DNA of 64,000 nucleotides from Escherichia coli (GTDB lineage Bacteria > Pseudomonadota > Gammaproteobacteria > Enterobacterales > Enterobacteriaceae), in the NCBI RefSeq assembly GCF_017348835.2, contig NZ_CP071375.1, one strand, 5' to 3'. Under the pieces are notes generated by a model. That model saw nothing but the letters and a program-made list of their open reading frames with translations, was not told the DNA's origin and ran no database searches. The translations under genes were made by a program, and so were the position numbers. Shown piece by piece: positions 6,933-45,001 of this stretch. Positions within the stretch are counted from its first letter, which is position 1. Each line of letters starts with the position of its first letter.

Positions 6933-6947
6933 ATAACGAGGGAATAT

Positions 6948-7538: not shown

Positions 7539-7559
7539 TATATATGTATCACGCGGTGC

Positions 7560-10221: not shown

Positions 10222-10234
10222 TTTATTTAAATAA

Positions 10235-10272
10235 AAAGCCGGAAAAGAAATTAAACTTTCCCGGCTTTTTTA
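10235..10272. terminator. Hairpin plus T-tract, likely bidirectional intrinsic terminator
   Basis: aaagccgg ... ccggcttttttatt between the immunity-3 stop and the convergent SymE-like gene. Confidence 0.5.
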
Positions 10273-10276
10273 TTAT

Positions 10277-10457
10277 TTAACTCTCGTTCAGCACACTAAA
10301 CATCCCGTCCCGCATCCCCTTAACTGCCTGTTTAACCTGATAAAGCTCCCTGCGCAGTTCCTGTACTTCGTTGTTATCCGCAAGCAGGATCAGACATCCC
10401 TCCGAGATCTTCACGGTAACGCCCGTGCCGATCTCAAATCCCGCTTCTCTCAGCCAT
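10277..10457 (-). pseudogene. SymE-like toxin gene, 5'-truncated by the adjacent rhs fragment boundary
   Basis: C-terminal 60 aa (AKWLREAGFEIGTGVTVKISEGCLILLADNNEVQELRRELYQVKQAVKGMRDGMFSVLNES) resemble SymE ([28 protein letters not shown]). Similarity ends where rhs core sequence starts at ~10458. Confidence 0.55.
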
Positions 10458-12335
10458 TTGGCGCTGAATGCGGGCGGGTTTCCGGTCATCATCCAGACGC
10501 AGGGCACAGAGGGCGGGGTGCGTAATGAGCGGCAGGAGCGTGATGCGCTGGGCCGCCTGCTGCGCAGTGACACGCAGCACAGTACACGGACCTTCAGCTA
10601 CAACCGTCTTGACCAGATAACGGAAGTGACGCTCACCCCCACGGAAGAAGGGGAACGGCTGCACCACATGCAGGCGGACACGGTGCGCTTTGCGTATGAC
10701 CGCAGCGGCTGGCTGACGGCAGAGCACAGCGTGCACGGCAGCATAAAATATCAGCGTGACGCGCTGGGCAATCCCACCGACATCACGTTACCGAACGGGC
10801 AGCACCTCAGCCATCTTTACTACGGCAGCGGGCATCTGCTCCAGACGGCACTGGACGGTATCACGGTCAGTGAATATGAGCGTGACAGTCTGCACCGTCA
10901 GGTGATGCGCACGCAGGGGAAACTGGCGACGTTCAGCGGCTACAACGCCGACAACCGGTTAAGCTGGCAGCGCAGCCTGCCAGGTGGCAGCCAGAACCCA
11001 CAGCAGGCCGGTAACCCCCCGGCGCAGAAAGACAGCGTGACAGCGCGGGATTATATCTGGAACGCAGACGGTGAAGTCGGCGGCATCAATGACAAACTGC
11101 GCGGTTGCCTGGTGTTCAGCTATGACCGCAGCGGCTGGCTGACCAGTCGCACGGGTCAGATGTACGACCATGACCATTATTATTACGACAAAGCGGGCAA
11201 TCTGCAGACGGATGAGCATCAGGGAGCGGTGCCGGATAACCGCCTGCCGGGCTACGGGCGTGACCGCTACCGCTATAACGAATGGGGCGAACTGACAGAG
11301 CGCAGGGACCAGCAACTGGAGTGGAATACGCAGGGCCAGTTAACGCGGGTCATCAGCAGCAACAGCGAGACGCGGTATCAGTATGATGCGCTGGGCAGGC
11401 GTATCAGCAAGGCGACCAGCAATCTCCATACCGACCGGGGAGAACGAAGCCGGACAACGTTTGTGTGGGAAGGGTTCCGGCTGTTGCAGGAGACAACGTG
11501 GCAGGGAAAGCGGACATACCTGTACGACGCGGAACAGCCGTACACGCCGGTGGCGGCCATCACGGGGCGCGGAGAGAGCCAGAAAATCTGGTATTACCAC
11601 ACGGACCTGACGGGCACGGTACACGAGGTAACCGCGCCGGACGGGACGCTGGTGTGGGCGGGCTACCAGGCGGGATTTGGTGAAAACCGGGGCGACATCA
11701 GCAACAGCGGGGCGTACTTTGAGCAGCCGCTGCGGCTGCCGGGGCAGTATTATGATGAAGATACGGGGCTGCACTATAATCTGTTCAGATATTATGCGCC
11801 GGAGTGCGGGCGGTTTATCAGTCAGGACCCGATAGGGCTGGCGGGAGGAATAAACCTATATGCTTATGCGCCTAATCCGCTAAGTTATATTGATCCTCTT
11901 GGGCTTTGTAAATTAAGGGGAAGCGATGGGCGCTACAGAAGTGCACAGAATATTCAGGAAGAAATAGGCGGCCTACCCAATTTTGCAGGAAAAACTCCAG
12001 GAGAAATACGACAAACTTTGCGTAATCGAGGTTATTCGTCGGTACAAGCGTATAGTGGAGGAGAGGTCTGGACAAAAGCATTACCTGACGGAAATACTGT
12101 TGCAGTGAGGCTTGATCCGGCAAATCCTCGCTCACCTTCACATTATGCTGATGCTGTACCTCATGCTCATATTGAAACAGTTCCAACATCCAGTGTTTCT
12201 AATGGGAATTATCGCCCGCGAGACGTGACTGGCAGGCATACTGCCACTGGTGGGGTTTCTGATCGAGGAACAAATCCGAATCATAACGCTGATGTTTACA
12301 TTCCAATGTCTCCGGGACGATTCCCATATGATTAA
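10458..12335 (+). CDS. Orphan rhs fragment with toxin tip CT4
   Basis: Rhs core similarity from ~10458 (ORF-track start 10371 is a read-through of the SymE antisense). DPLGL at 11892-11906, then a ~143-aa unique tip with no recognised family. Confidence 0.7.
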   Translation: MALNAGGFPVIIQTQGTEGGVRNERQERDALGRLLRSDTQHSTRTFSYNRLDQITEVTLTPTEEGERLHHMQADTVRFAYDRSGWLTAEHSVHGSIKYQRDALGNPTDITLPNGQHLSHLYYGSGHLLQTALDGITVSEYERDSLHRQVMRTQGKLATFSGYNADNRLSWQRSLPGGSQNPQQAGNPPAQKDSVTARDYIWNADGEVGGINDKLRGCLVFSYDRSGWLTSRTGQMYDHDHYYYDKAGNLQTDEHQGAVPDNRLPGYGRDRYRYNEWGELTERRDQQLEWNTQGQLTRVISSNSETRYQYDALGRRISKATSNLHTDRGERSRTTFVWEGFRLLQETTWQGKRTYLYDAEQPYTPVAAITGRGESQKIWYYHTDLTGTVHEVTAPDGTLVWAGYQAGFGENRGDISNSGAYFEQPLRLPGQYYDEDTGLHYNLFRYYAPECGRFISQDPIGLAGGINLYAYAPNPLSYIDPLGLCKLRGSDGRYRSAQNIQEEIGGLPNFAGKTPGEIRQTLRNRGYSSVQAYSGGEVWTKALPDGNTVAVRLDPANPRSPSHYADAVPHAHIETVPTSSVSNGNYRPRDVTGRHTATGGVSDRGTNPNHNADVYIPMSPGRFPYD

Positions 12336-12615: not shown

Positions 12616-12655
12616 AAGCCGGGAAGGTTATAAAATCTTCCCGGCTTTTTATTTT
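12616..12655. terminator. Intrinsic terminator hairpin (9-bp stem gccgggaag/cttcccggc) with T-tract
   Basis: Perfect inverted repeat followed by tttttattttt. Confidence 0.6.
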
Positions 12656-12900
12656 TAATTCTCGTTCAGTACACTAAACATCCCGTCCCGCATCCCCTTA
12701 ACCGCCTGTTTAACCTGATAAAGTTCCCTGCGCAGTTCCTGTACTTCGTTGTTATCGGCAAGCAGGATCAGGCAGCCTTCCGAGATCTTCACAGTAACGC
12801 CCGTGCCGATCGAAAATTCCGCTTCTCTCAGCCATTTGGCGCTGATTTTGATCACCGGCGTGTCGCTGCTGTTGGGCAGATATCCTACGGTACAACGGCG
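12655..12900 (-). CDS. SymE-like toxin homologue (AbrB-fold type I toxin family), possibly defective at its start
   Basis: 66-aa track ORF begins at a GTG; the SymE-like frame extends further upstream (TPEVTISKTQRRCTVGY...) with no in-frame ATG, while an ATG sits in another frame. Confidence 0.5.
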   Translation of the reverse strand, partial: RRCTVGYLPNSSDTPVIKISAKWLREAEFSIGTGVTVKISEGCLILLADNNEVQELRRELYQVKQAVKGMRDGMFSVLNEN

Positions 12901-13001
12901 TTGTGTTTTGGAAATGGTGACTTCTGGCGTAATATCATGTTTAAGTTAGGGGCTTTCGTAGTCATACCCCGACTCTCCCCGGCCCTAAACACAACCCCCA
13001 C

Positions 13002-17909: not shown

Positions 17910-18677
17910 ATGTGCGAATTGCTCGGGATGAGCGCCAACGTCCCTACCGATATCTGCTTTAGTTTCACCGGTCTGGTGCAGCGTGGTGGTGGAACCGGGC
18001 CACATAAAGATGGCTGGGGCATTACCTTTTACGAAGGTAAAGGCTGTCGCACATTTAAAGATCCACAACCCAGCTTTAATTCCCCCATCGCCAAACTTGT
18101 CCAGGACTACCCGATAAAATCCTGTTCGGTGGTGGCTCATATTCGCCAGGCTAATCGGGGCGAGGTGGCGCTGGAAAATACTCACCCATTTACCCGCGAG
18201 TTATGGGGGCGTAACTGGACTTATGCCCATAACGGACAACTGACGGGCTACAAATCACTGGAAACCGGCAACTTCCGCCCGGTAGGCGAAACCGACAGCG
18301 AAAAAGCCTTCTGCTGGCTCCTGCATAAATTAACGCAGCGTTACCCGCGCACACCGGGCAACATGGCGGCGGTATTTAAATATATCGCCTCACTGGCGGA
18401 TGAACTGCGGCAGAAGGGCGTTTTCAACATGCTGCTTTCTGACGGGCGCTATGTAATGGCGTATTGCTCGACTAATTTACACTGGATCACCCGCCGCGCG
18501 CCGTTTGGCGTGGCAACGTTGCTGGATCAGGATGTGGAAATCGACTTCAGCTCGCAGACCACACCGAATGATGTGGTCACGGTGATTGCAACACAGCCGC
18601 TGACGGGCAATGAAACCTGGCAAAAGATTATGCCAGGCGAATGGCGCTTATTTTGCCTCGGGGAGCGTGTAGTTTGA
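17910..18677 (+). CDS. yafJ: Class II glutamine amidotransferase-like protein YafJ
   Basis: [19 protein letters not shown]... (N-terminal Cys nucleophile). Confidence 0.85.
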
Positions 18678-19388
18678 TGCCAGCTGTGGTTGCACAACTT
18701 CGTGGCTTAACGGCTTGCTGACCACGTAACGACCATTGACCACAGAAACGGTCGGTGGCTTACGGGTTTGCTCAAAGTAGTCGTAACCCGGCTTCAGTTG
18801 CTCCCAGAAGTCCTTAAAGTTGGAATATTTATGGCGCTTCATATTGGCGTCGGTCATGCGGAACGGGTAAATACTCACTTGCACGCTCGGCTGACCAAAC
18901 ACCAGCGCACCAGTAACGAACTGGAAGATCTCATCAATACCCTGATTGGTCATTGCGTAGCAGCCGATGGAAACACAATCGCCGTGGATCATCAGATATT
19001 TCCCTTCATAACCATGCGCACGGTCATAGGCATTGGGGAATCCAATATTAATCGCTTTGTAGTAACGGCTGTCTGGTTTTAATTGATTACGCTGGACGCT
19101 ATAAAACCCTTCCGGGCTTTTGAAATCGCCCTGACGCTGTTTTGGCCCTAAGCCGCCGGAATATTTACAGATTTTATAGCTGTCGAGCAGTTGATATTGC
19201 TCGCCCATTTTGACGTAGAGATCGAGCGTACGTTCTTCCTTGAAGATCTGGATGTAGACAGGGGATCCCATCAACTGCTGCTTATACTCTTTGCTCACTG
19301 GCGTGGTCGAGCTACTGCTGCCCAGCAAACCGGCAAACGAAACGCACGGGATCAACAACATCGCAAGAATTAATGCGATTTTACGCAT
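18648..19388 (-). CDS. yafK: L,D-transpeptidase-family periplasmic protein YafK
   Basis: 246-aa product with signal peptide. Confidence 0.85.
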
Positions 19389-19543
19389 ACTGCTTATTCC
19401 TTGATAAAACGGTTACACACGCCAGGACGGCAAAATGGATCCCAAATCGGAATAGTCTGGATTTGGAAGGCTCACATTATCACCAAAAGAGTTTTACGCA
19501 AGCCTGTCGGCGCAGGGTTTACAAATTTCATCGGAAGCGGGCT

Positions 19544-19822
19544 TTACCCAAAGAGCACCGCGTGAGTTCCAGTTCTCTCAAATCGTAAAAGTTTATCGGT
19601 AAGTTTGTAAATCAGGAGCCAGTCCGGTTCGACATGAGCATCGCGATAACCTTTCCATGAACCCTGCAGCGGGTGGTCTTTATAAACAGCTGGAAGCGGT
19701 AAAGTATTATTGATAAGAAGCGTCATAAGATATTTCAATTTATTCATATCATTATGACGCTTTTGTGCAAGTTTTACATCCTTTGAAAATTGTCCCGAGT
19801 ATTCAATATCCCTTTGAATCAT
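19544..19822 (-). CDS. yafQ: Type II toxin YafQ (RelE-like mRNA interferase)
   Basis: 92-aa product MIQRDIEYSGQFSKDVKLAQKRH... Confidence 0.9.
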   Translation of the reverse strand: MIQRDIEYSGQFSKDVKLAQKRHNDMNKLKYLMTLLINNTLPLPAVYKDHPLQGSWKGYRDAHVEPDWLLIYKLTDKLLRFERTGTHAVLFG

Positions 19823-19824
19823 AT

Positions 19825-20085
19825 TTAAATTCCTAATTTATCAAATAAATCATCGGCGTCTTTGGCCTTATGAACATCAACGCCAGCTTCGCTGTTTTTG
19901 ATTGATTGAATGGTTAATTGATTAGGCTCGCGTAAATCAAACGGCAATGCCTTTTCACGCGCGACCTTTGTGAGGGTTATGCGAACCAGGTCAGAGATGG
20001 TCAGCCCCATCCCGGCCAGTACGTCCGCCGCCTGATTCTTCAGATCTTCATCGATTCGGGCGCGAACAAATGCATTTGCAGCCAT
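19825..20085 (-). CDS. dinJ: Antitoxin DinJ
   Basis: 86-aa product MAANAFVRARIDEDLKNQAADVLAGMGLTISD... Confidence 0.9.
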   Translation of the reverse strand: MAANAFVRARIDEDLKNQAADVLAGMGLTISDLVRITLTKVAREKALPFDLREPNQLTIQSIKNSEAGVDVHKAKDADDLFDKLGI

Positions 20086-20101
20086 TGGGGTATCTCCTGT
20101 G

Positions 20102-20117
20102 CTGTATATATATTCAG
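20102..20117. promoter_or_regulatory. Putative LexA (SOS) box upstream of dinJ-yafQ
   Basis: CTGTATATATATTCAG, one mismatch to CTGT-N8-ACAG. Confidence 0.5.
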
Positions 20118-20294
20118 CTTGAATTGTAGCTCAATTGAGCAACAGCGGCAATTCATGAGCAATTCAATAAACTGATGTATTTACATAATTCACTGAAATA
20201 TATATGTTAATTTTATAATAATGGTTTATTAAGTTTGTTCAGAAACGATCCGGGATACACTGCAACATTAAAGCATGACCAGCCATTATTGAGT

Positions 20295-21044
20295 ATGTCC
20301 TTGCCGTCGATTCCATCCTTTGTATTGTCGGGATTACTGTTGATTTGTTTGCCGTTTTCTTCATTTGCCAGCGCCACCACATCACATATCTCTTTCAGCT
20401 ACGCCGCCCGCCAGCGGATGCAAAACCGTGCGCGTTTATTAAAACAGTACCAAATCCATCTGAAAAAACAGGCCAGCTATATTGTGGAAGGCAATGCCGA
20501 AAGCAGAAGGGCGCTACGCCTGCACAACCGCGAACAGATAAAACAGCACCCGGAGTGGTTTCCTGGTCCGCTCAAGGCGAACGACCGACGCTGGCAGGCG
20601 CTCGCAGAAAACAACCATTTCTTAAGCAGCGACCACCTGCATAACATCACCGAAGTGGCGATTCACCGCCTAGAGCAGCAGCTTGGCAAGCCTTACGTCT
20701 GGGGCGGCACGCGGCCCGATAAAGGCTTCGACTGTAGCGGGTTGGTTTTTTATGCCTACAACAAGATCCTTGAGGCGAAGCTCCCGCGCACGGCCAATGA
20801 GATGTATCACTACCGCCGGGCAACGATTGTGGCGAATAACGACCTGCGCCGGGGAGATTTGCTGTTTTTCCATATTCACAGTCGTGAGATTGCCGACCAT
20901 ATGGGGGTGTATCTGGGCGATGGGCAATTTATCGAGTCGCCACGCACCGGGGAAACCATTCGGGTAAGCCAGTTAGCTGAACCTTTCTGGCAGGACCATT
21001 TTTTGGGCGCGCGCAGGATTTTGACGGAAGAGACGATTTTGTAA
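20295..21044 (+). CDS. yafL: NlpC/P60-family lipoprotein peptidase YafL
   Basis: MSLPSIPSFVLSGLLLICLPFSSFA... signal/lipobox-like N-terminus; Cys-containing DCSGLV motif. Confidence 0.85.
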   Translation: MSLPSIPSFVLSGLLLICLPFSSFASATTSHISFSYAARQRMQNRARLLKQYQIHLKKQASYIVEGNAESRRALRLHNREQIKQHPEWFPGPLKANDRRWQALAENNHFLSSDHLHNITEVAIHRLEQQLGKPYVWGGTRPDKGFDCSGLVFYAYNKILEAKLPRTANEMYHYRRATIVANNDLRRGDLLFFHIHSREIADHMGVYLGDGQFIESPRTGETIRVSQLAEPFWQDHFLGARRILTEETIL

Positions 21045-21100
21045 ATGGGTAATATTGACGAACTGGCAAAAGGCCGGATGCCACACGGCATCCGACTTGT

Positions 21101-21457
21101 TTACATCTGGGCTGAAAACTCACGTTCTAAGACATCAACAATGAGCTGGTTTTTTGAAATGGAATGTTGTCTGGCGACGATGGTCAGCCGCGAATCAATG
21201 TGATGAGGAACACGAAGCGTCAGGCGTTTTTGCTCTTCTTCTTCACGAAAAGGGGCAATACCGTCCTCTTCACAATCCGCCATCCACTCATCCAGCGCGC
21301 TTTCGCCCTCACGATATAATGCCTCAATGCTTGTGGCTACAAAGTCACAATAACCGTTTACATTGAGGAATTTGCCGCGAAATGCATTGATATCGGCTTC
21401 AAATGTCACTGCGGCTGGTTGACCTTTAATTGTGATAATGTTCGATGCTTTATTCAT
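21101..21457 (-). CDS. HicB-like antitoxin (N-terminal HicB fold, C-terminal ribbon-helix-helix)
   Basis: 118 aa; ...FEADINAFRGKFLNVNGYCDFVATSIEAL...EDGIAPF... then RLTLRVPHHIDSRLTIVARQHSISKNQLIVDVLEREF. Confidence 0.5.
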   Translation of the reverse strand: MNKASNIITIKGQPAAVTFEADINAFRGKFLNVNGYCDFVATSIEALYREGESALDEWMADCEEDGIAPFREEEEQKRLTLRVPHHIDSRLTIVARQHSISKNQLIVDVLEREFSAQM

Positions 21458-21749
21458 AATCTACCCCTACACAGTTAACAAACCACTCCTTAAGACCTGC
21501 TACTGCGCCTTTATCCATCACATTCTTTGGATGTGGCTCATGTGTACTGAATTTGGTCGTTCCAATCTGAAATTTCCTTCTGGACCCATTGTTATTTTTT
21601 ATTGTTCCACCCACCGCTTTAATGAGCGCAACAACATCATCCCATTTAATTCCAGATTTTGGCGGCTCCGTCATTACATCGTCGAATGTTTTTCTATGGC
21701 GGGAGCCTAGCGCGCTGACCTTAATCATACTATCAATCCATGACATCAT
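21450..21749 (-). CDS. HicA-like toxin (start uncertain; may be shorter than the 99-aa ORF)
   Basis: ...GSRRKFQIGTTKFSTHEPHPKNVMDKGAVAGLKEWF resembles the HicA signature; stop overlaps the HicB-like start. Confidence 0.45.
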   Translation of the reverse strand: MMSWIDSMIKVSALGSRHRKTFDDVMTEPPKSGIKWDDVVALIKAVGGTIKNNNGSRRKFQIGTTKFSTHEPHPKNVMDKGAVAGLKEWFVNCVGVDYE

Positions 21750-21832
21750 TGTATGGTGTCATCGTAGTATGTTTGCAATGTGACGTCAATCAATGGTGTC
21801 AGATGCATGCAAAGCATGGAAAAGAATCCCCA

Positions 21833-23572
21833 TCAACTCAACGCCCCCATAATCTTCAACTCCAGCTCATCCGGCACTTCGTTATACGACAGCACATGCA
21901 GCCCCGGCGCAAACAACCTTGCGTAGCGCGCTAGCAAAGGGCGCAGCTGCGGCGGCACCAGCAGCACCGGGTCTTTCCCCGCCGCTTTCATCTGCTCCTT
22001 CACCTGCGGCATCGTGCTCTGGAACTGGTTGAGCATATTCGGGTCGACCGGCACGCTGTCGAGCATCACTTTGCCGCCCTGTTGCGCCTGATTCACCACG
22101 TTGGTCAGCAGATTTTCCAGCTCATTATTCAGCGTATACACCGTCAGCTCCTGCTTGCGAACGAAAGGATGAGTAATGCTGCGCCGCAGCGCCAGGCGCA
22201 CATCGGCCGCCAGCAGAATATGATCTTTGGTCACCGCGCTACTGGCGACCAGCACGGTGGCGATGGTGACGATGTCGCGCAGGGAAACGCCTTCGGTCAG
22301 CAGCGCACGGTACACTTTCAGCAACTGGCTGTAATTCAGCGCCGCGCTCAAATCCTCCGCCAGGCGCGGTGCCATTGACGACAAACGGTTATGCAACTGC
22401 GTGATGTCATCATAGTTAAACAAATCAGGAATATAACTGCGCACAATCTTATTCACATGGGTGGCAATCACGCTGGCGCTGTCGATCACCTGATACCCCA
22501 TATTCAGCGCCTTCGCTTTCTGCGCAGGCTGGATCCAGGTGACTGGCATCCCATACGCCGGGTCGTTCCCCAGCACGCCGTCTATCTCGCCGTAGGTTTC
22601 GCTGGAGGGCAGGGCCATCAGTTTATCCGCCGGAATATCCGCTTCATCAGCCTTAATGCCGTTGATGAAAATGGCGTACTGGCTGGGCTTGAGGCGGAAA
22701 TTTTCCCTAATGCGGATCTCCGGCAGCAGCACGCCGTTGCCGTCGGATATCACCTGCCGCACGCCGCGGATCCGCTGGGTGAGCGGGTTACCCTGTGCTT
22801 TATCGACCAGCGCTACTAGCTTGTAGCCAAGGCTTAAGCTGATGGGTTCGATCAGCGGAATGGTTTCCCAACTGACCTGTTGCTCGCTGGTTTCAGTGAT
22901 GGTGCGGGTCAGCGTTTCGAGGCTTTTCTCCTCCGCCTCTGCCGCCTGCGGCTGTTTGCTCATTCGCCAGCCGGTAAAGCCAAGCAGGGCGCTGAACATC
23001 AGGAACGGCAGGTGCGGCATCCCCGGCACCACTGCCAGCACAAACATAATTCCGGTAGCGGTGTAGAGCACCGACGGGCTTGCCAGCAGTTGGTTACGCA
23101 CGTCATGGGCGATATCGCCGTTGTCGCTGACGCGGGTGACGATAATCGCCGCTGCGGTGGAGAGCAGCAGGGAAGGGATCTGCGCCACCAGCCCATCGCC
23201 GATGGTCATCAGCACATATTGCTGGAAGGCGGCATCGGCGCTCAGGTTGTATTTGAAGATCCTGATACAGACGCCGCCGATCAGGTTGATCGCCAGAATC
23301 ATCATCCCGGCGATGGCATCCCCGCGCACAAACTTCGATGCCCCGTCCATCGCGCCGTAGAAATCGGCTTCGCTGGCGACATCTTTACGCCGGGTTTGCG
23401 CCTGCGCCTGGTTGATCAATCCGGCGTTAAGGTCGGCGTCAATCGCCATCTGCTTGCCGGGCATCGCGTCAAGGGTAAAGCGGGCAGAAACCTCGGAAAT
23501 ACGCTCGGCCCCTTTGGTGACGACAATAAAGTTGATTGTCAACAGCGTCAGTAAATCCGAGCGTGAAAGCAT
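21833..23572 (-). pseudogene. lfhA: FlhA-family export protein remnant lacking its N-terminal membrane domain (Flag-2 remnant)
   Basis: 579-aa product homologous to the FlhA central and C-terminal regions; first ~110 aa absent. Confidence 0.8.
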
Positions 23573-24302
23573 TATCGCCGCGCTGCACGGGCAGTCGATT
23601 TTTAACGGTGGTGGGCTGTCGCCGTTAAATAAAATCAGCCCGTCTCATCCGCCAAAACCTGCCACCGTGGCGGTGCCGGAAGAGACGGAGAAAAAAGCGC
23701 GTGATGTGAATGAGAAAACGGCGCTGCTGAAGAAGAAATCCGCCACCGAGCTTGGCGAGTTGGCAACCAGTATCAACACCATTGCCCGTGATGCGCATAT
23801 GGAAGCGAATCTGGAGATGGAGATTGTTCCCCAGGGATTACGCGTGCTGATTAAAGACGACCAGAATCGCAATATGTTCGAACGCGGCAGCGCGAAGATT
23901 ATGCCGTTCTTTAAAACGCTGCTGGTGGAGCTAGCGCCAGTGTTCGACTCGCTCGATAACAAAATTATTATTACCGGGCATACCGATGCGATGGCCTACA
24001 AAAACAATATCTACAACAACTGGAACCTTTCGGGCGATCGCGCGCTTTCAGCTCGTCGGGTGCTGGAAGAGGCCGGAATGCCGGAAGATAAAGTGATGCA
24101 GGTAAGCGCAATGGCGGACCAGATGCTGCTGGATGCCAAAAATCCGCAAAGCGCGGGCAATCGGCGTATTGAGATTATGGTGCTGACCAAAAGTGCGTCC
24201 GATACGCTGTATCAATACTTTGGTCAGCATGGGGATAAAGTGGTGCAGCCACTGGTGCAAAAGCTGGATAAGCAGCAGGTGCTTTCGCAGCGAACGCGTT
24301 AA
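23412..24302 (+). pseudogene. lafU: MotB/OmpA-like protein remnant (Flag-2 remnant); true start uncertain, ORF overlaps lfhA
   Basis: C-terminal OmpA-like domain (IIITGHTDAMAYKNNIYNNWNLSGDRALSARRVLEE); no N-terminal transmembrane segment. Confidence 0.65.
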
Positions 24303-24338
24303 ATGCTGAATCTTTACGCATTTCTCAAACCCTGAAAT

Positions 24339-24358
24339 CACTGTATACTTTACCAGTG
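24339..24358. promoter_or_regulatory. LexA box of the dinB promoter
   Basis: CACTGTATACTTTACCAGTG 15 bp upstream of the dinB ATG. Confidence 0.7.
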
Positions 24359-24372
24359 TTGAGAGGTGAGCA

Positions 24373-25428
24373 ATGCGTAAAATCATTCATGTGGATATGG
24401 ACTGCTTTTTCGCAGCGGTGGAGATGCGCGACAATCCCGCCCTGCGCGATATCCCTATTGCTATTGGCGGCAGCCGCGAACGTCGAGGGGTGATCAGCAC
24501 CGCCAATTATCCCGCGCGTAAATTTGGCGTACGTAGCGCTATGCCGACAGGGATGGCGCTCAAATTATGCCCACATCTCACCTTGCTTCCGGGGCGCTTT
24601 GACGCCTACAAAGAAGCCTCAAATCATATCCGTGAAATCTTCTCGCGCTACACCTCGCGCATTGAACCGTTGTCACTGGATGAAGCCTATCTCGATGTCA
24701 CCGATAGCGTCCATTGCCACGGTTCTGCGACCCTCATCGCCCAGGAAATCCGCCAGACGATTTTCAGCGAGCTGCAACTGACGGCGTCTGCGGGCGTGGC
24801 ACCAGTAAAGTTTCTCGCCAAAATCGCCTCCGACATGAATAAACCCAACGGCCAGTTTGTGATTACGCCGGCAGAAGTTCCGGCATTTTTACAAACCTTA
24901 CCACTGGCAAAAATCCCCGGCGTCGGCAAAGTCTCGGCGGCAAAACTGGAAGCGATGGGGCTGCGGACCTGCGGTGATGTACAAAAGTGTGATCTGGTGA
25001 TGCTGCTTAAACGCTTTGGCAAATTTGGCCGCATTTTGTGGGAGCGTAGTCAGGGGATTGACGAACGCGATGTTAACAGCGAACGGTTGCGAAAATCCGT
25101 CGGCGTGGAACGCACGATGGCGGAAGATATTCATCACTGGTCTGAATGTGAAGCGATTATCGAGCGGCTGTATCCGGAACTTGAACGCCGTCTGGCAAAG
25201 GTAAAACCTGATTTACTGATTGCTCGCCAGGGGGTGAAATTAAAGTTCGACGATTTTCAGCAAACCACTCAGGAGCACGTCTGGCCGCGGCTGAATAAAG
25301 CTGACTTAATCGCCACCGCGCGTAAAACCTGGGATGAACGCCGCGGCGGGCGCGGTGTGCGACTGGTGGGGCTGCATGTGACGTTGCTTGACCCGCAAAT
25401 GGAAAGACAACTGGTGCTGGGATTATGA
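24373..25428 (+). CDS. dinB: DNA polymerase IV
   Basis: 351-aa product [33 protein letters not shown]... Confidence 0.95.
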
Positions 25429-25877
25429 ATAACATACAAATAAGAAACTATCAGCCTGGCGATTTTCAGCAACTATGCGCTATTTTCATTAGAGCGGTTA
25501 TGATGACCGCCAGTCAGCATTATTCACCACAACAAATTGCCGCCTGGGCGCAGATTGACGAATCTCGCTGGAAGGAGAAACTCGCGAAATCACAAGTGCG
25601 GGTTGCAGTCATTAATGCACAACCGGTTGGTTTTATTTCCCGCATTGAACATTATATCGATATGTTATTTGTTGACCCTGAATACACCCGCCGTGGGGTT
25701 GCCAGCGCTTTGTTAAAACCTTGGATTAAGTCTGAATCCGAACTTACGGTGGACGCAAGCATAACCGCAAAACCCTTTTTTGAACGTTATGGTTTTCAGA
25801 CAGTTAAGCAGCAGCGCGTTGAATGCCGGGGAGCGTGGTTTACTAATTTTTCTATGCGATATAAACCGCAACATTAA
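25425..25877 (+). CDS. yafP: GNAT-family acetyltransferase YafP
   Basis: 150-aa product; ATG overlaps the dinB stop. Confidence 0.85.
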
Positions 25878-26183
25878 ATCCAGCTTGCAATGAAAATAAC
25901 GCCCGCCTGGTATGTGCGCGTTTTCTTATTCCACAAACTGCAAGGAGGTAAATCATGACAAATCCTTTATCAATGACTCTTTGCAGACCTTTCCAGGATT
26001 AATTCTTTTTTTCTTGCCCTGGATTCGTCTGCCATTTCCTGATTTTTAATATTTATATACTCTAAATAATTCGAGTTGCAGGAAGGTGACAAGCGAGTGA
26101 ATCGCCAGGAGCTTACTAAAGTAAGTGACTGGGGTGAACGAACGCAGTCGCAGTACATGCAACTTGAAGTATGACGAGTATAA

Positions 26184-26400
26184 ATGGAATGGTACATGGG
26201 CAAATATATTCGTCCCTTATCCGATGCGGTATTTACCATCGCATCTGATGACCTGTGGATCGAGAGTTTAGCGATCCAACAATTACACACCACGGCAAAT
26301 TTACCCAACATGCAGCGCGTAGTGGGGATGCCAGATTTACACCCCGGACGCGGCTACCCGATTGGCGCAGCGTTCTTCTCTGTTGGTCGTTTTTACCCGA
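26184..26400 (+). pseudogene. ykfJ: RtcB-family fragment
   Basis: [16 protein letters not shown] motif typical of the RtcB N-terminus; only ~70 aa before a frame change into prfH. Confidence 0.6.
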
Positions 26401-26828
26401 CAAGACGTCGCGGTAACAGTGCTGGAAACAGAAACAGGTCGTTACTCTGACACCCTGCGTTCAGCGCTGGTTTCTCTGAATGGCGACAACGCATGGGCAT
26501 TAAGCGAAAGCTGGTATGGCACTATTCAGTGGATTTGTCGGAGTCCGTATCGCCCACATCATGGGCGTAAAAACTGGTTTCTGGGCATTGGGCGTTTTAC
26601 TGCTGATGAGCAGGAACAATCCGACGCGGTCCGTTATGAGACGCTGCGTTCGTCGGGGCCGGGCGGTCAACATGTCAATAAAACCGATTCGGCGGTGCGC
26701 GCCACGCATCTGGCTACCTGGATTAGCGTGAAGGTTCAGTCAGAGCGCAGCCAGCATGCCAACAAGCGGCTGGCACGATTGCTGATTGAACCGCCCCGGG
26801 TTTCCTGGAGAGTGTTTTATCTGTGAAC

Positions 26829-27716
26829 TCAGGCTGCCAGATCATTATTTCCGATGGAAGCATAATAAGCTTTTTCTGCTTCTGCCGGAGGAATATGGCC
26901 CAGCCTTTCCAGCAATCGTCGATTGTTATACCAGTCCACCCACGTTAGTGTGGCCAGTTCCACTTCTGTCCGGTTTTTCCAGCTCTTACGGTGTATTACC
27001 TCCGCTTTGTAAAGACCATTGATGCTCTCCGCCATCGCGTTGTCATACGAGTCGCCAGTACTCCCTGTTGATGCCAGTAATCCGGCTTCCTTAAGCCGCT
27101 GCGTGTAGGCCAGCGATACATACTGAGAACCTTTATCACTGTGATGGATTGTGCCGGACGGCCGACGGGCCCACAACGCCTGCTCCAGTGCATCCAGCAC
27201 GAATGTTGTTTCCATGGATGATGAGACCTGCCATCCCACGATGTATCCGGCGAACACATCAATGATGAACGCCACATAAACGAAGCCCTGCCATGTGCTT
27301 ACCCAGGTAAAATCAGCCACCCACAACTGGTCTGGACGTTCTGCCACGAACTGACGGTTTACGCGGTCGCATGCGGCAACGGCTTTCCGGCTGACGGTAG
27401 TGCGGACCTTTTTACCCCGGAGAACACCGGCAAGTCCCATAACTGCCATGAGACGTGCCACAGTGCATCTGGCCACTCTGATACCTTCCCGTAACAACTG
27501 ACGCCAGACTTTACGCACACCGTATACCTGGTGATTTTCATCGTATACGCGCTGTATCTCTTTCTTCAGCCAGTCATCGTGCTGCGCACGGGCACTGCGT
27601 TTATCCGGATGATGTCGCTGTTGCTGACAATGGTAATACGTTGACGGGGCAATATGCAGTTCGCTGCATACCGGTCCGACCCCGTACTGCTCACGCAGCT
27701 TATCCAGCAGTGGCAT
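26829..27716 (-). CDS. IS629-like transposase OrfB (DDE catalytic domain)
   Basis: 295 aa; start overlaps the orfA stop, consistent with IS3-type frameshifting. Confidence 0.85.
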   Translation of the reverse strand: MPLLDKLREQYGVGPVCSELHIAPSTYYHCQQQRHHPDKRSARAQHDDWLKKEIQRVYDENHQVYGVRKVWRQLLREGIRVARCTVARLMAVMGLAGVLRGKKVRTTVSRKAVAACDRVNRQFVAERPDQLWVADFTWVSTWQGFVYVAFIIDVFAGYIVGWQVSSSMETTFVLDALEQALWARRPSGTIHHSDKGSQYVSLAYTQRLKEAGLLASTGSTGDSYDNAMAESINGLYKAEVIHRKSWKNRTEVELATLTWVDWYNNRRLLERLGHIPPAEAEKAYYASIGNNDLAA

Positions 27717-28042
27717 TATTTTTTCCAGAGGCGGTCGAACTCCGCCTTCGCAAAATAAGCGGAAGCCTGGCGAAGGATATCGTTACTGCGGCGCAGTTCA
27801 CGATTTTCACGTTCCAGCTCTTTCAGACGCTGACGTTCAGCGGTGGTGAGTCCACCATCACCACTCCCGGTATCCCGCTCATGCTGGCGAACCCAGACAC
27901 GCAGAGTCTCCGGCGTACAGCCAATCTTTGGGGCAATGGAACAAATTGCCGCCCACTGTGAGTCATATTCATCCTGACTTTCCAGAACCATACGAATCGC
28001 CCGCTGACGGACTTCGGGGGAAAAACGAGTATTTTTAGTCAT
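27716..28042 (-). CDS. IS629-like transposase OrfA
   Basis: 108 aa, [26 protein letters not shown]..., helix-turn-helix. Confidence 0.85.
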
Positions 28043-28288
28043 CCTGTTTACCTCTTTCTCAGGGAGTTTAGTCTCCAGGATTTCCGGGGCGGTTCAGATT
28101 GCCTGGAAGCTGGAGCAACAGCAACAGGAAAATAGCGCAGTGCTGAAATCGCAGCGGCGAATGTTCCATCACCAGATTGAACGTGGCAACCCGCGACGAA
28201 CGTTTACAGGGATGGCTTTTATCGAAGGATAATGAAGGATGAAACTGCCGGAAGGCGATTAAACGCCATCCGGCAGCAAATCAAATAA

Positions 28289-29746
28289 TTACTTCGCTGG
28301 AATTTCTTTCAGCAGTTCAGTCAGCAGTGTCCAGTAATGACCTACGCTTTCGATGTGAACTTGCTCATCCGGAGAGTGTGGACCGGTGATTGTTGGCCCG
28401 ATAGAAACCATGTCCATTTCCGGATACGGTTTTTTGAACAGACCACATTCCAGGCCCGCGTGGATAATCTGGATGTTCGGCGTCTTGTTGAACAGACGCT
28501 GATAGGTTTCACGTACCAGATGCATCACCGGAGAGTTAGCGTCCGGCTGCCAGCCAGGATATGCGCCTTTCGCTTCGGTTTTCGCGCCAGCCAGTTTACC
28601 CAGCGAATCCAGCATGCTCACCACGTAGTCTTTACCGCTGTCGATCAGAGAACGGATCAGGCAGTGAATTTCTACATTATTGTCAGTCATGGTCACCACA
28701 CCGACGTTCAGGGAGGTTTCGACCACACCTTTTGCCACGTCGGAATTGCGGATAACACCGTTCGGGGTGGCGTTCAGCAGACGAATAAAGGTATCGCGAG
28801 ATTTCGCAATCAGGGCAGCTTTATCGTTCGCTACAGAGTCCAGCAACAAGGCCAGATTTTTCTCTTTCTCTGCCAGCTCGTTTTTCAGGATCTCCTGATA
28901 GGTATTCACCAGAGATTTCAGGGCGTCGACTTTATCAGCTGCGACAGCAATGGTCGCAAAGGCTTCACGCGGGATGGCGTTACGCAGTGTGCCGCCGTTG
29001 AAATCAATAAGACGCAGATCCAGTTCTTCTGCATGACCCGCCAGGAAGCGCACCAGCAGTTTGTTGGCATTACCCAGGCCAACGTGGATTTCACCGCCGG
29101 AGTGACCGCCTTTCAGACCTTTTAAGGTTAACTTGAAGGTTTCAAAACCAGCTGGAACCGCTTCACGATCTAAATGCAGGTTGGAGGTGAAGTCGATACC
29201 CCCCGCACAACCCATGTAGATTTCACCTTCTTCTTCGGAGTCGGTGTTAATCAGAATATCAGCCTGCAACCAGTTGCTCTGTAAGCCGAACGCACCGTCC
29301 ATACCGGCTTCTTCGGTCATGGTCAGCAGCACTTCCAGCGGACCGTGAACCACGTTTTCGTCAGCCAGAACCGCCAGCGCAGACGCCATACCAATGCCGT
29401 TATCCGCACCCAGCGTGGTGCCGCGCGCTTTAACCCATTCGCCATCAATATAAGGCTGGATAGGATCTTTCGTGAAGTCATGCACGGTGTCGTTATTTTT
29501 CTGCGGCACCATATCGAGGTGGGCCTGTAAGACGACCGGTTTACGATTTTCCATACCTGCGGTAGCAGGTTTACGAATCAGGATATTACCTACCTGATCG
29601 CGTTCGACATGGAAACCTTTCTCTTTTGCCCAACCAACAATGTATTCAGCGAGTTGCTCTTCATGATAGGACGGGTGAGGAATAGAACAGATTTTGGCAA
29701 AAATATCCCACAGCGGCTGTGGAGATAATTGAGACAGTTCAGACAC
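28289..29746 (-). CDS. pepD: Cytosol non-specific dipeptidase (aminoacyl-histidine dipeptidase)
   Basis: 485-aa product MSELSQLSPQPLWDIFAKICSIPHPS... Confidence 0.95.
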   Translation of the reverse strand: MSELSQLSPQPLWDIFAKICSIPHPSYHEEQLAEYIVGWAKEKGFHVERDQVGNILIRKPATAGMENRKPVVLQAHLDMVPQKNNDTVHDFTKDPIQPYIDGEWVKARGTTLGADNGIGMASALAVLADENVVHGPLEVLLTMTEEAGMDGAFGLQSNWLQADILINTDSEEEGEIYMGCAGGIDFTSNLHLDREAVPAGFETFKLTLKGLKGGHSGGEIHVGLGNANKLLVRFLAGHAEELDLRLIDFNGGTLRNAIPREAFATIAVAADKVDALKSLVNTYQEILKNELAEKEKNLALLLDSVANDKAALIAKSRDTFIRLLNATPNGVIRNSDVAKGVVETSLNVGVVTMTDNNVEIHCLIRSLIDSGKDYVVSMLDSLGKLAGAKTEAKGAYPGWQPDANSPVMHLVRETYQRLFNKTPNIQIIHAGLECGLFKKPYPEMDMVSIGPTITGPHSPDEQVHIESVGHYWTLLTELLKEIPAK

Positions 29747-30006
29747 GTTAAGTCTCCTTGTCGATCACCCGCAAAACAGTATTGCAGGTCACAGGGTTAG
29801 CAGAAAATGTTGTCAACACAAGACATGCTTGCGAGATATGTTTGAGAATACCACTTTATCCCGCGTCAGGGAGAGGCAGTGCGTAAAAAGACGCGGACTC
29901 ATGTGAAATACTGGTTTTTAGTGCGCCAGATCTCTATAATCTCGCGCAACCTATTTTCCCCTCGAACACTTTTTAAGCCGTAGATAAACAGGCTGGGACA
30001 CTTCAC

Positions 30007-30465
30007 ATGAGCGAAAAATACATCGTCACCTGGGACATGTTGCAGATCCATGCACGTAAACTCGCAAGCCGACTGATGCCTTCTGAACAATGGAAAGGCA
30101 TTATTGCCGTAAGCCGTGGCGGTCTGGTACCGGGTGCGTTACTGGCGCGTGAACTGGGTATTCGTCATGTCGATACCGTTTGTATTTCCAGCTACGATCA
30201 CGACAACCAGCGCGAGCTTAAAGTGCTGAAACGCGCAGAAGGCGATGGCGAAGGCTTCATCGTTATTGATGACCTGGTGGATACCGGTGGTACTGCGGTT
30301 GCGATTCGTGAAATGTATCCAAAAGCGCACTTTGTCACCATCTTTGCAAAACCGGCTGGTCGTCCGCTGGTTGATGACTATGTTGTTGATATCCCGCAAG
30401 ATACCTGGATTGAACAGCCGTGGGATATGGGTGTCGTATTCGTCCCGCCAATCTCCGGTCGCTAA
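30007..30465 (+). CDS. gpt: Xanthine-guanine phosphoribosyltransferase
   Basis: 152-aa product [23 protein letters not shown]... Confidence 0.95.
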
Positions 30466-30556
30466 TCTTTTCAACGCCTGGCACTGCCGGGCGTTGTTCT
30501 TTTTAACTTCAGGCGGGTTACAATAGTTTCCAGTAAGTATTCTGGAGGCTGCATCC

Positions 30557-31801
30557 ATGACACAGGCAAACCTGAGCGAAACCCTGTTCAAACCCCGCTT
30601 TAAACATCCTGAAACCTCGACGCTAGTCCGCCGCTTTAATCACGGCGCACAACCGCCTGTGCAGTCGGCCCTTGATGGTAAAACCATCCCTCACTGGTAT
30701 CGCATGATTAACCGTCTGATGTGGATCTGGCGCGGCATTGACCCACGTGAAATCCTCGACGTCCAGGCACGTATTGTGATGAGCGATGCCGAACGTACCG
30801 ACGATGATTTATACGATACGGTGATTGGCTACCGTGGCGGCAACTGGATTTATGAGTGGGCCACCCAGGCGATGGTGTGGCAACAAAAAGCCTGTGCGGA
30901 AGAAGATCCGCAACTCAGTGGGCGTCACTGGCTGCATGCGGCTACGTTGTACAACATTGCCGCCTATCCTCATCTGAAAGGAGATGACCTGGCCGAGCAA
31001 GCGCAGGCTTTGTCAAACCGCGCCTATGAAGAGGCCGCTCAGCGTCTACCGGGCACGATGCGGCAGATGGAGTTTACCGTACCCGGCGGTGCGCCCATCA
31101 CCGGCTTTTTGCATATGCCGAAAGGCGATGGCCCGTTCCCGACGGTATTAATGTGTGGTGGTCTGGATGCGATGCAGACGGACTATTACAGCCTGTATGA
31201 ACGTTATTTTGCGCCGCGCGGCATTGCGATGCTGACTATTGATATGCCGTCGGTGGGCTTTTCTTCAAAATGGAAGCTCACCCAGGACTCCAGCCTGTTG
31301 CATCAGCACGTCTTAAAGGCGCTGCCTAACGTACCGTGGGTGGATCACACTCGCGTCGCGGCCTTTGGTTTCCGTTTCGGCGCTAACGTTGCCGTGCGTC
31401 TGGCATACCTTGAATCGCCGCGTCTGAAAGCGGTTGCCTGTCTTGGTCCGGTAGTTCATACCCTGTTGAGTGATTTTAAGTGCCAGCAACAGGTGCCGGA
31501 AATGTATCTTGACGTTCTGGCGAGTCGTTTGGGGATGCATGATGCTTCCGACGAAGCGTTACGCGTGGAGCTGAATCGTTATTCATTAAAAGTGCAAGGA
31601 TTGCTGGGGCGTCGCTGCCCAACGCCAATGTTATCAGGCTACTGGAAGAACGATCCGTTCAGCCCGGAAGAGGACTCACGCTTAATCACCTCATCCTCTG
31701 CTGACGGTAAATTATTAGAGATCCCATTTAACCCGGTGTATCGGAATTTTGACAAAGGTCTTCAGGAAATCACGGACTGGATCGAAAAACGTTTGTGTTA
31801 A
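30557..31801 (+). CDS. frsA: Esterase FrsA
   Basis: 414-aa alpha/beta hydrolase matching FrsA. Confidence 0.9.
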
Positions 31802-32260
<459 letters not shown>

Positions 32261-32269
32261 GTGAAATGT

Positions 32270-32291
32270 GCCGGATGCATCACATCCGGCA
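32270..32291. terminator. Hairpin between convergent crl and phoE
   Basis: gccggatg-catca-catccggc. Confidence 0.5.
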
Positions 32292-32298
32292 ATAATCA

Positions 32299-33354
32299 TT
32301 AAAACTGATAGGTCATGCCAACCGCGACAATATCATCATTATTAATATTCAATTTGTTATCGCTATCCAGTTGGTTGATTTTATAATCAACAAACGCTGA
32401 CATATTTTTGTTGAAATAATATGTAGCCCCGACATCGATATAATTGACCAGATCTTCATCACCGATACCTTCAATATCTTTCCCTTTCGATAAGACATAA
32501 CCCAGCGATGGACGCAGACCAAAGTCAAACTGGTATTGAGCGACCGCTTCAAAGTTCTGTGTCTTATTGGCAAAGCCGCCAGTTATTGGCGTCATTTTGC
32601 GTGTTTCAGAATAAAAAGTTGCCAGATAAATATTATTGGCATCGTATTTCAGACCTGTTGCCCATGCTTCTGCACGCTTGCCTGTGCCACGGCTTTGCAG
32701 GTTCTGCTCGTTGGTGCGATCTGAGTTGGTATAGGCCCCACTAATGGCGAAATCGCTGCCGCCAAAGTCATATGTCAATGACGTGCCGAAGCCATCGCCG
32801 TTTTGCTTTTTAACATCGCGGTTTTCGTTTTTCCCTTGATATTGCAGGGTTAAGTTCAGGCCATCGATAACACCGAAGAAGTCGGTGTTCCGATACGTCG
32901 CCAGACCGCTGGCGCGTTTGGTCATAAAGTTGTCGGTCTGCGCCGAGGAGTCGCCACCAAATTCCGGGAACATATCGGTCCAGGCTTCCACGTCATACAA
33001 CGCGCCCAGGTTACGACCATAATCGAAAGAACCCAAATCTTTATATTTCAACCCGGCAAAAGCGAGACGCGTTTTTTGCTGTGCAGTATCACTCTCTGCT
33101 TTATTACCGGCAAACTCTGCTTCCCAACGACCATAACCAGTCAGTTGATCGTTAATTTGTGTTTCGCCTTTAAAACCAAAACGGATATAACTCTGGTCGC
33201 CATCTTTACTGTCGTTATCACTCATATAATGCATGGCTTTAACTTTGCCATAGACATCCAGTTTATTACCGTCTTTGTTATATATTTCTGCGGCCTGTAC
33301 GGATGCAGATGCCACAATGCCCATCACCACTAATGCCCGAGTACTCTTTTTCAT
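32299..33354 (-). CDS. phoE: Outer membrane phosphoporin PhoE
   Basis: Porin sequence ending ...VAVGMTYQF; start placed at [21 protein letters not shown]. Confidence 0.95.
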
Positions 33355-33389
33355 TTTCATTCCTGATTTTAATTAACGCGCGAATATTC

Positions 33390-33455
33390 AGCGGGAGAGT
33401 CCCGTTGAAAACAGGAAAGTTTTTAACCTGAGATTGTTAAAGATATATTACAGAT
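33390..33455 (-). promoter_or_regulatory. phoE promoter region with Pho-box-like repeats
   Basis: Reverse strand reads CTGTAATATATCTTTAACAATCTCAGG..., resembling PhoB-binding CTGTCATA-type repeats. Confidence 0.5.
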
Positions 33456-33641
33456 TAATAATATTCTTAAAATGTGGTAATTTATTAAATCTGTAATGAA
33501 AGCGTAAACAACTGCCGCTACGCTTGCTGATCCCGCGCAACAAAACGCCATGCTTTGCTCGCAGATGGTTGGCAACCGACGACAGTCCTGCTAAAACGTT
33601 CGTTTGATATCATTTTTCCTAAAATTGAATGGCAGAGAATC

Positions 33642-34745
33642 ATGAGTGACAGCCAGACGCTGGTGATAAAACTCGGCACCAGTGTGCTAACAGGCGGATC
33701 GCGCCGCCTGAACCGTGCCCATATCGTTGAACTTGTTCGCCAGTGCGCGCAGTTACATGCCGCCGGGCATCGGATTGTTATTGTGACGTCGGGCGCGATC
33801 GCCGCCGGACGTGAGCACCTGGGTTACCCGGAACTGCCAGCGACTATTGCCTCGAAACAACTGCTGGCGGCGGTAGGGCAGAGTCGACTGATTCAACTGT
33901 GGGAACAGCTGTTTTCGATTTATGGCATTCACGTCGGGCAGATGCTGCTGACTCGTGCTGATATGGAAGACCGTGAACGCTTCCTGAACGCCCGCGACAC
34001 CCTGCGAGCGTTGCTCGATAACAATATCGTTCCGGTAATCAATGAGAACGATGCTGTCGCTACGGCAGAGATTAAAGTCGGCGATAACGATAACCTTTCT
34101 GCACTGGCGGCGATTCTGGCGGGTGCCGATAAACTGTTGTTACTGACCGATCAAAAAGGTTTGTATACCGCTGACCCGCGCAGTAATCCGCAGGCAGAAT
34201 TGATAAAAGATGTTTACGGTATTGATGACGCACTGCGCGCGATTGCCGGTGACAGCGTTTCAGGCCTCGGAACTGGCGGCATGAGTACCAAATTGCAGGC
34301 CGCGGACGTGGCTTGCCGTGCGGGTATCGACACCATTATTGCCGCGGGCAGCAAGCCGGGCGTCATTGGTGATGTGATGGAAGGCATTTCCGTCGGTACG
34401 CTGTTCCATGCCCAGGCGACTCCGCTTGAAAACCGTAAACGCTGGATTTTCGGTGCGCCGCCTGCGGGTGAAATCACGGTAGATGAAGGGGCAACCGCCG
34501 CCATTCTTGAACGCGGCAGCTCCCTGTTGCCGAAAGGCATTAAAAGCGTGACTGGCAATTTCTCGCGTGGTGAAGTCATCCGCATTTGCAACCTCGAAGG
34601 CCGCGATATCGCCCACGGTGTCAGTCGTTATAACAGCGATGCATTACGCCGTATTGCCGGACACCACTCGCAAGAAATTGATGCAATACTGGGATATGAA
34701 TACGGCCCGGTTGCCGTTCACCGTGATGACATGATTACCCGTTAA
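33642..34745 (+). CDS. proB: Glutamate 5-kinase
   Basis: Start placed at [19 protein letters not shown] (track ORF starts earlier at 33555). Confidence 0.95.
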
Positions 34746-44417: not shown

Positions 44418-45001
44418 TGGCATTCAGAATGAGTGAACAACCACGGACCATAAAAATTTATAATCTGCTGGCCGGAACTAATGAATTTATTGGTGAAGGT
44501 GACGCATATATTCCGCCTCATACAGGTCTGCCAGCAAACAGTACCGATATTGCACCGCCAGATATTCCGGCTGGCTTTGTGGCTGTTTTCAACAGTGATG
44601 AGGCATCGTGGCATCTCGTTGAAGATCATCGGGGAAAAACCGTCTATGACGTGGCTTCCGGCGACGCGTTATTTATTTCTGAACTTGGCTCGTTACCGGA
44701 AAATGTCACCTGGTTATCGCCGGAAGGGGAATATCAGAAGTGGAACGGCACAGCCTGGGTGAAGGATACGGAAGCAGAAAAACTGTTCCGGATCCGGGAG
44801 GCGGAAGAAACAAAAAACAACCTGATGCAGGTAGCCAGTGAGCATATTGCGCCACTTCAGGATGCTGCAGATCTGGAAATCGCAACGGAGGAAGAAAACT
44901 CGTTGCTGGAAGCCTGGAAAAAGTATCGGGTGTTGCTGAACCGTGTTAATACAACAACTGCACCTGATATTGAGTGGCCTACGAACCCTGTCAGGGAGTA
45001 A
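44417..45001 (+). CDS. tfa: Tail fibre assembly protein Tfa
   Basis: 194-aa product; ATG overlaps the stf stop. Confidence 0.85.

Follow-up and report, generated by a model that had tools for sequence, protein, structure and literature searches.

In E. coli K-12 the gene of DNA polymerase IV (Pol IV), dinB, is separated from yafP by the yafN-yafO toxin-antitoxin pair, whereas in the E. coli strain analysed here the two genes are joined directly. The locus raises the question of whether this lineage lost the yafNO pair or never had it. The initial annotation of the sequence had named these two options, "never acquired" or "lost cleanly", and the same two are left after the analyses described below; its K-12 gene order, dinB-yafN-yafO-yafP, is confirmed by DH1Ec095, a K-12 derivative, as annotated in RefSeq. 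The arrangement itself is the known and common two-gene (CFT073-type) allele of the dinB-yafP SOS operon, and it has already been published: Gutierrez, Elez, Clermont, Denamur and Matic described exactly this arrangement in 2011 (Nucleic Acids Res 39:4192; PMC3105422).

The dinB-yafP junction and its surroundings

The window, i.e., the whole 64-kb stretch of DNA that was analysed, carries the following features of the operon:

24322..24349, + strand: promoter-like site of the dinB operon (TTCTCA, 16 nt, TATACT), 9 of 12 matches in a consensus scan
24339..24358, + strand: LexA (SOS) box CACTGTATACTTTACCAGTG, CTG-N10-CAG, read in the sequence and fitting the LexA consensus
24361..24369, + strand: Shine-Dalgarno region of dinB, GAGAGGTGA, duplex with the 16S 3' end of -7.1 kcal/mol
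24373..25428, + strand: dinB, DNA polymerase IV, 351 aa, open reading frame with the stop codon TGA at 25426-25428
25422..25428, + strand: ATTATGA, 7 bp, single copy, doubled around the yafNO block in four-gene strains (from alignment to both K-12 boundaries)
25425..25428, + strand: ATGA overlap of the yafP ATG (25425-25427) and the dinB TGA (25426-25428), from the sequence and the list of open reading frames
25425..25877, + strand: yafP, GNAT-family N-acetyltransferase, 150 aa, open reading frame with the ATG at 25425-25427

Positions 25420-25429, read directly, are GGATTATGAA. The overlap of the dinB stop and the yafP start as ATGA, reported in the initial annotation, is borne out, as positions 25425-25428 are common to both open reading frames, and no DNA intervenes between the two genes. 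Both genes are intact: dinB scores 546 bits against the DNA polymerase IV equivalog NF002677 (cut-off 256), and yafP, directly after it, scores 324.6 bits against the YafP GNAT equivalog NF007338 (cut-off 146) and is aligned over residues 1-150 of 150. The YafP protein of the window is WP_001059871.1, and the same protein is present in O157:H7, a four-gene strain. The RefSeq annotations of the near-identical F2_81 and PE164 show the same dinB/yafP overlap, with dinB annotated there too; F2_81 (NZ_CP043542.1) is 100% identical to positions 18000-34000 of the window. Upstream of dinB lie lafU and a truncated lfhA, and downstream of yafP truncated rtcB and prfH (split by an IS3-family element) are followed by pepD.

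Several observations concern the wider neighbourhood of the operon. Positions 21833-24302 represent a K-12-type deletion scar of Flag-2 (lateral flagella), in which the truncated lfhA (flhA-like) abuts lafU; in UTAK-12, THO-015 and E. marmotae, motA and a lafU of full length are retained ahead of dinB, and the Flag-2 deletion is thus polymorphic independently of yafNO. The truncated pseudogenes rtcB and prfH (about 25970-26826 and 28099-28233) are likewise found in K-12 and O157:H7; strains of B2, F and other groups, as well as E. marmotae, carry intact rtcB-prfH downstream of yafP, which makes this a second presence/absence polymorphism beside the operon. Two copies of an IS3-family (IS1203/IS629-like) element, at 26829-28042 (- strand) and 45307-46618 (+ strand), are inverted and 99.85% identical; one of them splits the prfH pseudogene, and the other adjoins a phage tail-fibre-assembly gene. 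The order prfH'-IS-tail fibre assembly in PE164 is what would result if the segment of roughly 18.5 kb enclosed by the IS copies (pepD to prophage) had been inverted. F2_81 has no IS copy at the place of 45307-46618 and differs from the window in the Rhs and prophage regions, and no complete genome covers 80% or more of window positions 44700-47200. Even with yafNO absent, toxin-antitoxin genes are numerous in this neighbourhood, going by F2_81 as annotated in RefSeq, with hicA-hicB at about 21100-21730, dinJ-yafQ at about 19540-20090, and a symE-like type I toxin at about 12650-12915. Positions 1-12000 form a type VI secretion/Rhs region with fragmented Rhs cores, orphan toxin tips and an imm11 immunity gene; through Rhs sequence at about 8557-10695 the window is longer than F2_81 by about 2.1 kb.

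The yafNO block and its distribution

Alignment of the window junction to both K-12 boundaries showed that the extra DNA of K-12 amounts to 759 bp with the 7-bp direct repeat ATTATGA at both ends, whereas the window holds one ATTATGA. The junction is therefore exact to the base. In K-12 a 51-nt spacer separates the end of dinB (...GGGATTATGA) from yafN, yafO comes next, and a 9-nt gap, inside which the second ATTATGA falls, lies between the yafO stop and yafP (start ...TTTATATTATGAATAAC). ATTATGA was present on both sides of the block in 10 of 10 four-gene alleles and as a single copy in 8 of 8 two-gene alleles, including those of non-coli Escherichia. The block encodes only yafN and yafO, and no recombinase. 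The repeat looks like the footprint of an old yafNO insertion, and this would be the best reading of it because a duplication at this position automatically keeps the dinB stop and the yafP start. As in a target duplication, the repeat flanks the insert, a single copy is found at empty sites, and the outgroup junctions are colinear with the empty site. As to mobility, no machinery was found in the block, no independent copies were found on plasmids, and genomes carry a median of one and a maximum of two copies. The term target-site duplication may be applied to ATTATGA as an analogy, the block having no transposase and no evident inverted ends.

Comparison with other E. coli genomes, which the initial annotation had suggested, was performed with a 400-nt probe centred on the dinB/yafP junction of the window and searched against complete E. 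coli genomes. The junction was uninterrupted in 2,569 of the 5,414 complete genomes with any probe match, and the remaining matches were split at the 7-bp repeat. The recurrence of the identical junction in these 2,569 genomes marks the dinB-yafP overlap as a genuine polymorphism of gene order rather than a product of chance. The two-gene arrangement is not distinctive of this strain; it is published and very common (about 47% of complete genomes). These counts agree with the published range of 40%–50%: the two-gene form was found in 40% of 98 genomes and in 50% of the ECOR strains, always with the same ATGA fusion (PMC3105422). A 2023 survey found YafO only rarely among phylogroups B1, C and G and among ST131 and ST73 (PMC10790755).

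The K-12 yafNO block was detected in 2,847 of 5,426 complete genomes, in a median of one copy and at most two. Genomes with an intact junction and those with yafNO add up to 5,416, compared with 5,414 genomes matching the probe, which leaves an overlap of at most a handful. The two sets are essentially complementary, and hence genomes with the direct junction almost never have yafNO elsewhere. The window gave the same answer to the question, raised in the initial annotation, of a copy at another site: no relative of YafN or YafO was detected within the 64 kb (best tblastn E = 2.7; blastn returned only chance matches of 12–25 nt), nor was there an adjacent pair of YafN antitoxin and YafO toxin genes. 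A second yafO-like match considered at 45936-46031 was rejected, as it proved to be the second IS copy.

Among the yafNO places in E. coli assemblies, 8 of 2,861 sit on plasmid records. The idea of yafNO as a free mobile plasmid cassette was rejected, since every plasmid match is embedded in dinB and yafP flanks and represents an F' episome or a chromosomal fragment. These eight places, together with the fact that no complete genome reproduces the window, speak for a move of yafNO in this strain to a chromosomal or plasmid site outside the window, but the plasmid copies contain no relocated cassette; given the absence of a YafN or YafO relative within the window and the almost non-overlapping sets of genomes, such a relocation is very improbable. 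It is even harder to believe that a collapsed repeat dropped yafNO from the assembly. This artefact, which nothing favours, comes to mind only because a 7-bp repeat flanks the missing block, but such a repeat is too short to make an assembly collapse, 2,569 independent complete genomes share the identical junction, and PCR with sequencing verified it in ECOR strains (PMC3105422). Relocation and artefact, even taken jointly, have hardly any probability.

Loss or primary absence of yafNO

In other taxa, the gene of the YafP homologue comes straight after dinB, and pepD, gpt and frsA belong to the same syntenic block. The dinB/yafP junctions are as follows:

Citrobacter amalonaticus: TAA-CCGCG-ATG
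Kluyvera sichuanensis: TAA-CC-ATG
Three further relatives: TAA, 5 nt, ATG (in L026, TAA-ATAAT-ATG)
E. marmotae: GTTATGA overlap
Escherichia sp. MOD1-EC7003: overlap, same as in the window

Neither YafN nor YafO was found in the tested loci of E. marmotae, Citrobacter, Kluyvera and the three further relatives. The E. coli two-gene junction TTATGAATAACATACAA is colinear with TTATAAATAATATGCAA of L026. Since the outgroups are uninterrupted, the insertion of yafNO would have occurred within Escherichia; judging from these loci, the two-gene arrangement must be the older state, with yafNO inserted into an uninterrupted junction. The published data point in another direction. Nearly every phylogroup A strain has four genes and every B1 strain two, B2 and D include both forms, and E. 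fergusonii is four-gene; from this Gutierrez et al. proposed that the ancestor had four genes and that the pair was deleted at least three times via recombination between ATGA sequences (PMC3105422). The four-gene state of E. fergusonii rests here on that paper; a contig scan with YafP recovered four Escherichia loci, E. fergusonii and E. albertii not being among them, and one irrelevant planctomycete. The four-gene ancestor of Gutierrez et al. is valid at most for a part of Escherichia. Thus, the literature favours loss, while the outgroup data presented here make the two-gene state older, so that "never acquired" is a live option.

A change of the dinB stop from TAA to TGA gave rise to the overlapping ATG, the old ATG now being ATA, codon 4. 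E. coli YafP has a three-residue N-terminal extension, MNN (window 25425-25436), in comparison with more distant relatives (L026 190-210). The annotated start of the 150-aa YafP of Citrobacter amalonaticus (ATA, overlapping dinB) is probably wrong; the ATG located 5 nt after TAA fits better.

The cassette itself has a history of its own. Among the four-gene alleles compared for divergence (L001, L006, L008, L011-L013 and L018-L021), mean dS was 0.21 for dinB, 0.096 for yafN, 0.031 for yafO and 0.135 for yafP, and the synonymous divergence of the cassette was 3–7 times below that of its flanks. Across yafO diversity was 1.2%–2.4%, and the jump to about 5% takes place no more than some 50 nt from the yafP start. 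When K-12 was compared with E. whittamii, third positions showed 2 differences out of 132 in yafO and 74 out of 501 in the flanks (p = 3e-6). The flanks of NU14 and AF5 have 13 differences in 953 sites and their cassettes 16 in 755, whereas the cassettes of AF5 and ST648 are separated by only four differences; cassette variants are incongruent with flank haplotypes. The divergence of the SCPM8794 cassette is about equal to that of the flanks. Such patterns suggest that the cassette has long been present in Escherichia, yet it seems to have been exchanged between lineages, and even species, independently of the flanks. Cassette gains do occur, and "never acquired" thereby stays alive for any given two-gene lineage.

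Some alleles depart from both main forms. Escherichia sp. E1V33 (L005 3624-4001) represents a third operon state, dinB-yafN-yafP, in which yafO is deleted from codon 8 to just before yafP, leaving an orphan antitoxin. The yafO genes of SCPM-O-B-8794 (L006) and DETEC-S586 (L019) contain a premature stop and an internal stop, respectively.

The junction alone cannot separate loss from primary absence, because precise excision regenerates the exact ancestral junction. We lean towards the loss of the cassette from this lineage by precise deletion: the two ATTATGA copies would have served for replication slippage or illegitimate recombination, with exact removal of the block and return to the original junction. 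In the comparison of 20 alleles, two-gene alleles are scattered among four-gene ones in trees built from dinB, from yafP and from the 600 nt nearest the junction. Over these 600 nt the window shows two differences from O157:H7 (four-gene) and 17–35 from other two-gene lineages, and THO-015 (two-gene) differs from NU14 (four-gene) at 2 of 600 positions. In the interval of +/-260 nt the first pair differs at 2 sites and THO-015 and NU14 at 1, and none of the SNPs there follows cassette presence (frequencies differ by 0.44 at most); SNPs hitch-hiking with the cassette, the signature of a single insertion spread by recombination, were sought near the junction and none were found. The same flank haplotype occurs with and without the cassette, which indicates that changes of state were recurrent and left the flanks untouched. 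Such flank-neutral changes are what slippage between 7-bp repeats would give and, as far as allele comparison can tell, favour loss. The similarity of the window and O157:H7 flanks was also considered as proof of a recent deletion; this argument is weakened by the shuffling of cassette variants relative to flanks. Toward loss count the microhomology deletion within the operon (E1V33 kept yafN and lost yafO, the deletion being joined at a TTAT microhomology), the decay of yafO (stop codons in SCPM8794 and DETEC-S586, IS1 in MINF_8D), and the lack of both a recombinase and a free plasmid copy, as do the published phylogeny with its almost entirely four-gene phylogroup A, two-gene B1 and four-gene E. 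fergusonii (PMC3105422) and the rarity of YafO in B1, C and G (PMC10790755). Against loss stand the two-gene outgroups as well as the low divergence and the incongruence of the cassette: as recombination has carried it between lineages, certain four-gene lineages may have gained it recently instead of keeping an ancestral state.

It could nevertheless be, with a probability that deserves serious weight, that the dinB-yafP junction of this lineage was never interrupted; the two-gene allele and its function would be the same. According to this explanation yafNO entered one Escherichia lineage, duplicated ATTATGA and spread by homologous recombination among lineages and species, and the two-gene and four-gene forms are an old coexisting polymorphism. 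The uninterrupted junctions outside E. coli, found in the same syntenic context at all loci compared, and the colinearity of the E. coli junction with L026 agree with it, as do the position of the 7-bp repeat exactly where a target duplication would keep both genes intact, the younger age of the cassette relative to the flanks (yafO of K-12 and E. whittamii), and its incongruence with the flanks, by which horizontal gain occurs. However, a gain by homologous recombination should bring donor flank SNPs, and none are linked within +/-260 nt. Moreover, two-gene B1 is placed among four-gene phylogroups and E. fergusonii is four-gene (PMC3105422), so parsimony favours loss; neither a recombinase nor a free plasmid copy is at hand for repeated site-specific insertion; and the divergence of the SCPM8794 cassette, about that of its flanks, makes the insertion an old one within Escherichia.

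A broader scenario, which we put forward tentatively, holds that the two-gene form is primordial and this strain perhaps never carried yafNO, that a later insertion, into a junction which by then had the ATGA overlap, duplicated ATTATGA, and that the cassette was exchanged among Escherichia lineages and species after the flanks had diverged. If true, the polymorphism would represent a gain-and-loss equilibrium of a selfish toxin-antitoxin cassette, and the published view of a four-gene ancestor losing the pair at least three times would have to be revised. Precise deletion remains the explanation we prefer for this lineage.

Synthesis of YafP and comparison with known operons

The LexA box overlaps the promoter-like site upstream of dinB, as far as sequence evidence goes, and presumably matches the published K-12 dinB SOS box. 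The site at 24322..24349 is the putative promoter of the dinB operon, its function being taken over from the K-12 dinB promoter. A LexA-controlled promoter at this place would yield one mRNA for Pol IV and YafP. By energy of the duplex with the 16S 3' end, the Shine-Dalgarno region of dinB is the strongest among the sites compared; yafN, yafO and dinB range from -6.1 to -7.1 kcal/mol, the region upstream of yafP in K-12 gives +0.4 kcal/mol, and that in the window gives -4.0 kcal/mol, with GGGA located just 2 nt from the AUG. YafP would have no usable ribosome-binding site of its own, and with its AUG overlapping the dinB UGA, ribosomes ending dinB may restart on the spot at yafP (termination-reinitiation, translational coupling). 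Coupling is the simplest mechanism for YafP synthesis and the most likely one. Gutierrez et al., in whose study the start was not mapped, termed the synthesis of YafP "frameshifting" (PMC3105422); no frameshift is needed because yafP has its own AUG. With coupling, YafP would be produced only together with Pol IV and in rough proportion to it, and an output tied to Pol IV in this way would fit the published observation that Pol IV counteracts the toxicity due to YafP. Where Pol IV is missing, YafP does harm; in CFT073 a YafP-YFP fusion was produced in stationary phase and after mitomycin C, and SOS induction of the two-gene operon was shown (PMC3105422). Co-transcription, SOS induction and YafP synthesis, shown in CFT073 (PMC3105422), are predicted for this strain.

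The finding places the strain among the carriers of the common two-gene dinB operon described in 2011, which has since been used as a cleaner background for the study of YafP. For annotation it means that the absence of yafNO here is no error and that YafP expression probably depends on the translation of dinB. The two-gene state of the outgroups, the 7-bp footprint, and a cassette that is younger than its flanks and incongruent with them refine the known picture slightly. Together with the side results, the flank-neutral switching offers a compact and well-sampled case for asking whether chromosomal toxin-antitoxin cassettes are kept by repeated re-acquisition or merely decay.

RecA-independent deletion and precise excision between short direct repeats are known from classical studies of lacI deletions and of the precise excision of transposons. 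In precise excision a block with a short direct repeat is removed, one repeat is left and the flanks stay untouched, which is the pattern seen here between two-gene and four-gene alleles. In the case of yafNO the pattern comes from the comparison of alleles, and the cassette has no transposase and no evident inverted ends.

The four-gene operon of K-12 was described by McKenzie et al. (2003, J Bacteriol 185:3972) and Singletary et al. (2009, J Bacteriol 191:7456), both cited in PMC3105422. The K-12 and window proteins are 99.7% (dinB) and 96% (yafP) identical in amino acid sequence, and the operons have the same neighbours, lafU upstream and rtcB'/prfH'/pepD downstream. K-12 alone has the 759 extra bp, and its yafP start, 9 nt after the yafO stop, does not overlap the dinB stop.

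The closest known system is the CFT073 operon, with the same gene pair, the same ATGA stop/start overlap and the same absence of yafNO as in the window. The junction GGGATTATGAATAAC is identical in the window and in Nissle 1917, which we take to be of the same lineage as CFT073, and the junctions of THO-015, PE164, UTAK-12, 700462 and P19_598 are identical to it as well. Nothing essential distinguishes the window from the CFT073 type, although its flanks belong to another haplotype, with 27 of 600 junction-proximal positions different from Nissle, and are closest over these 600 nt to O157:H7 and K-12. The published account of the two-gene operon involves a 4-nt repeat (ATGA) and a four-gene ancestor (PMC3105422), whereas the present comparison points to a 7-nt repeat (ATTATGA) and to outgroup genera with the two-gene arrangement.
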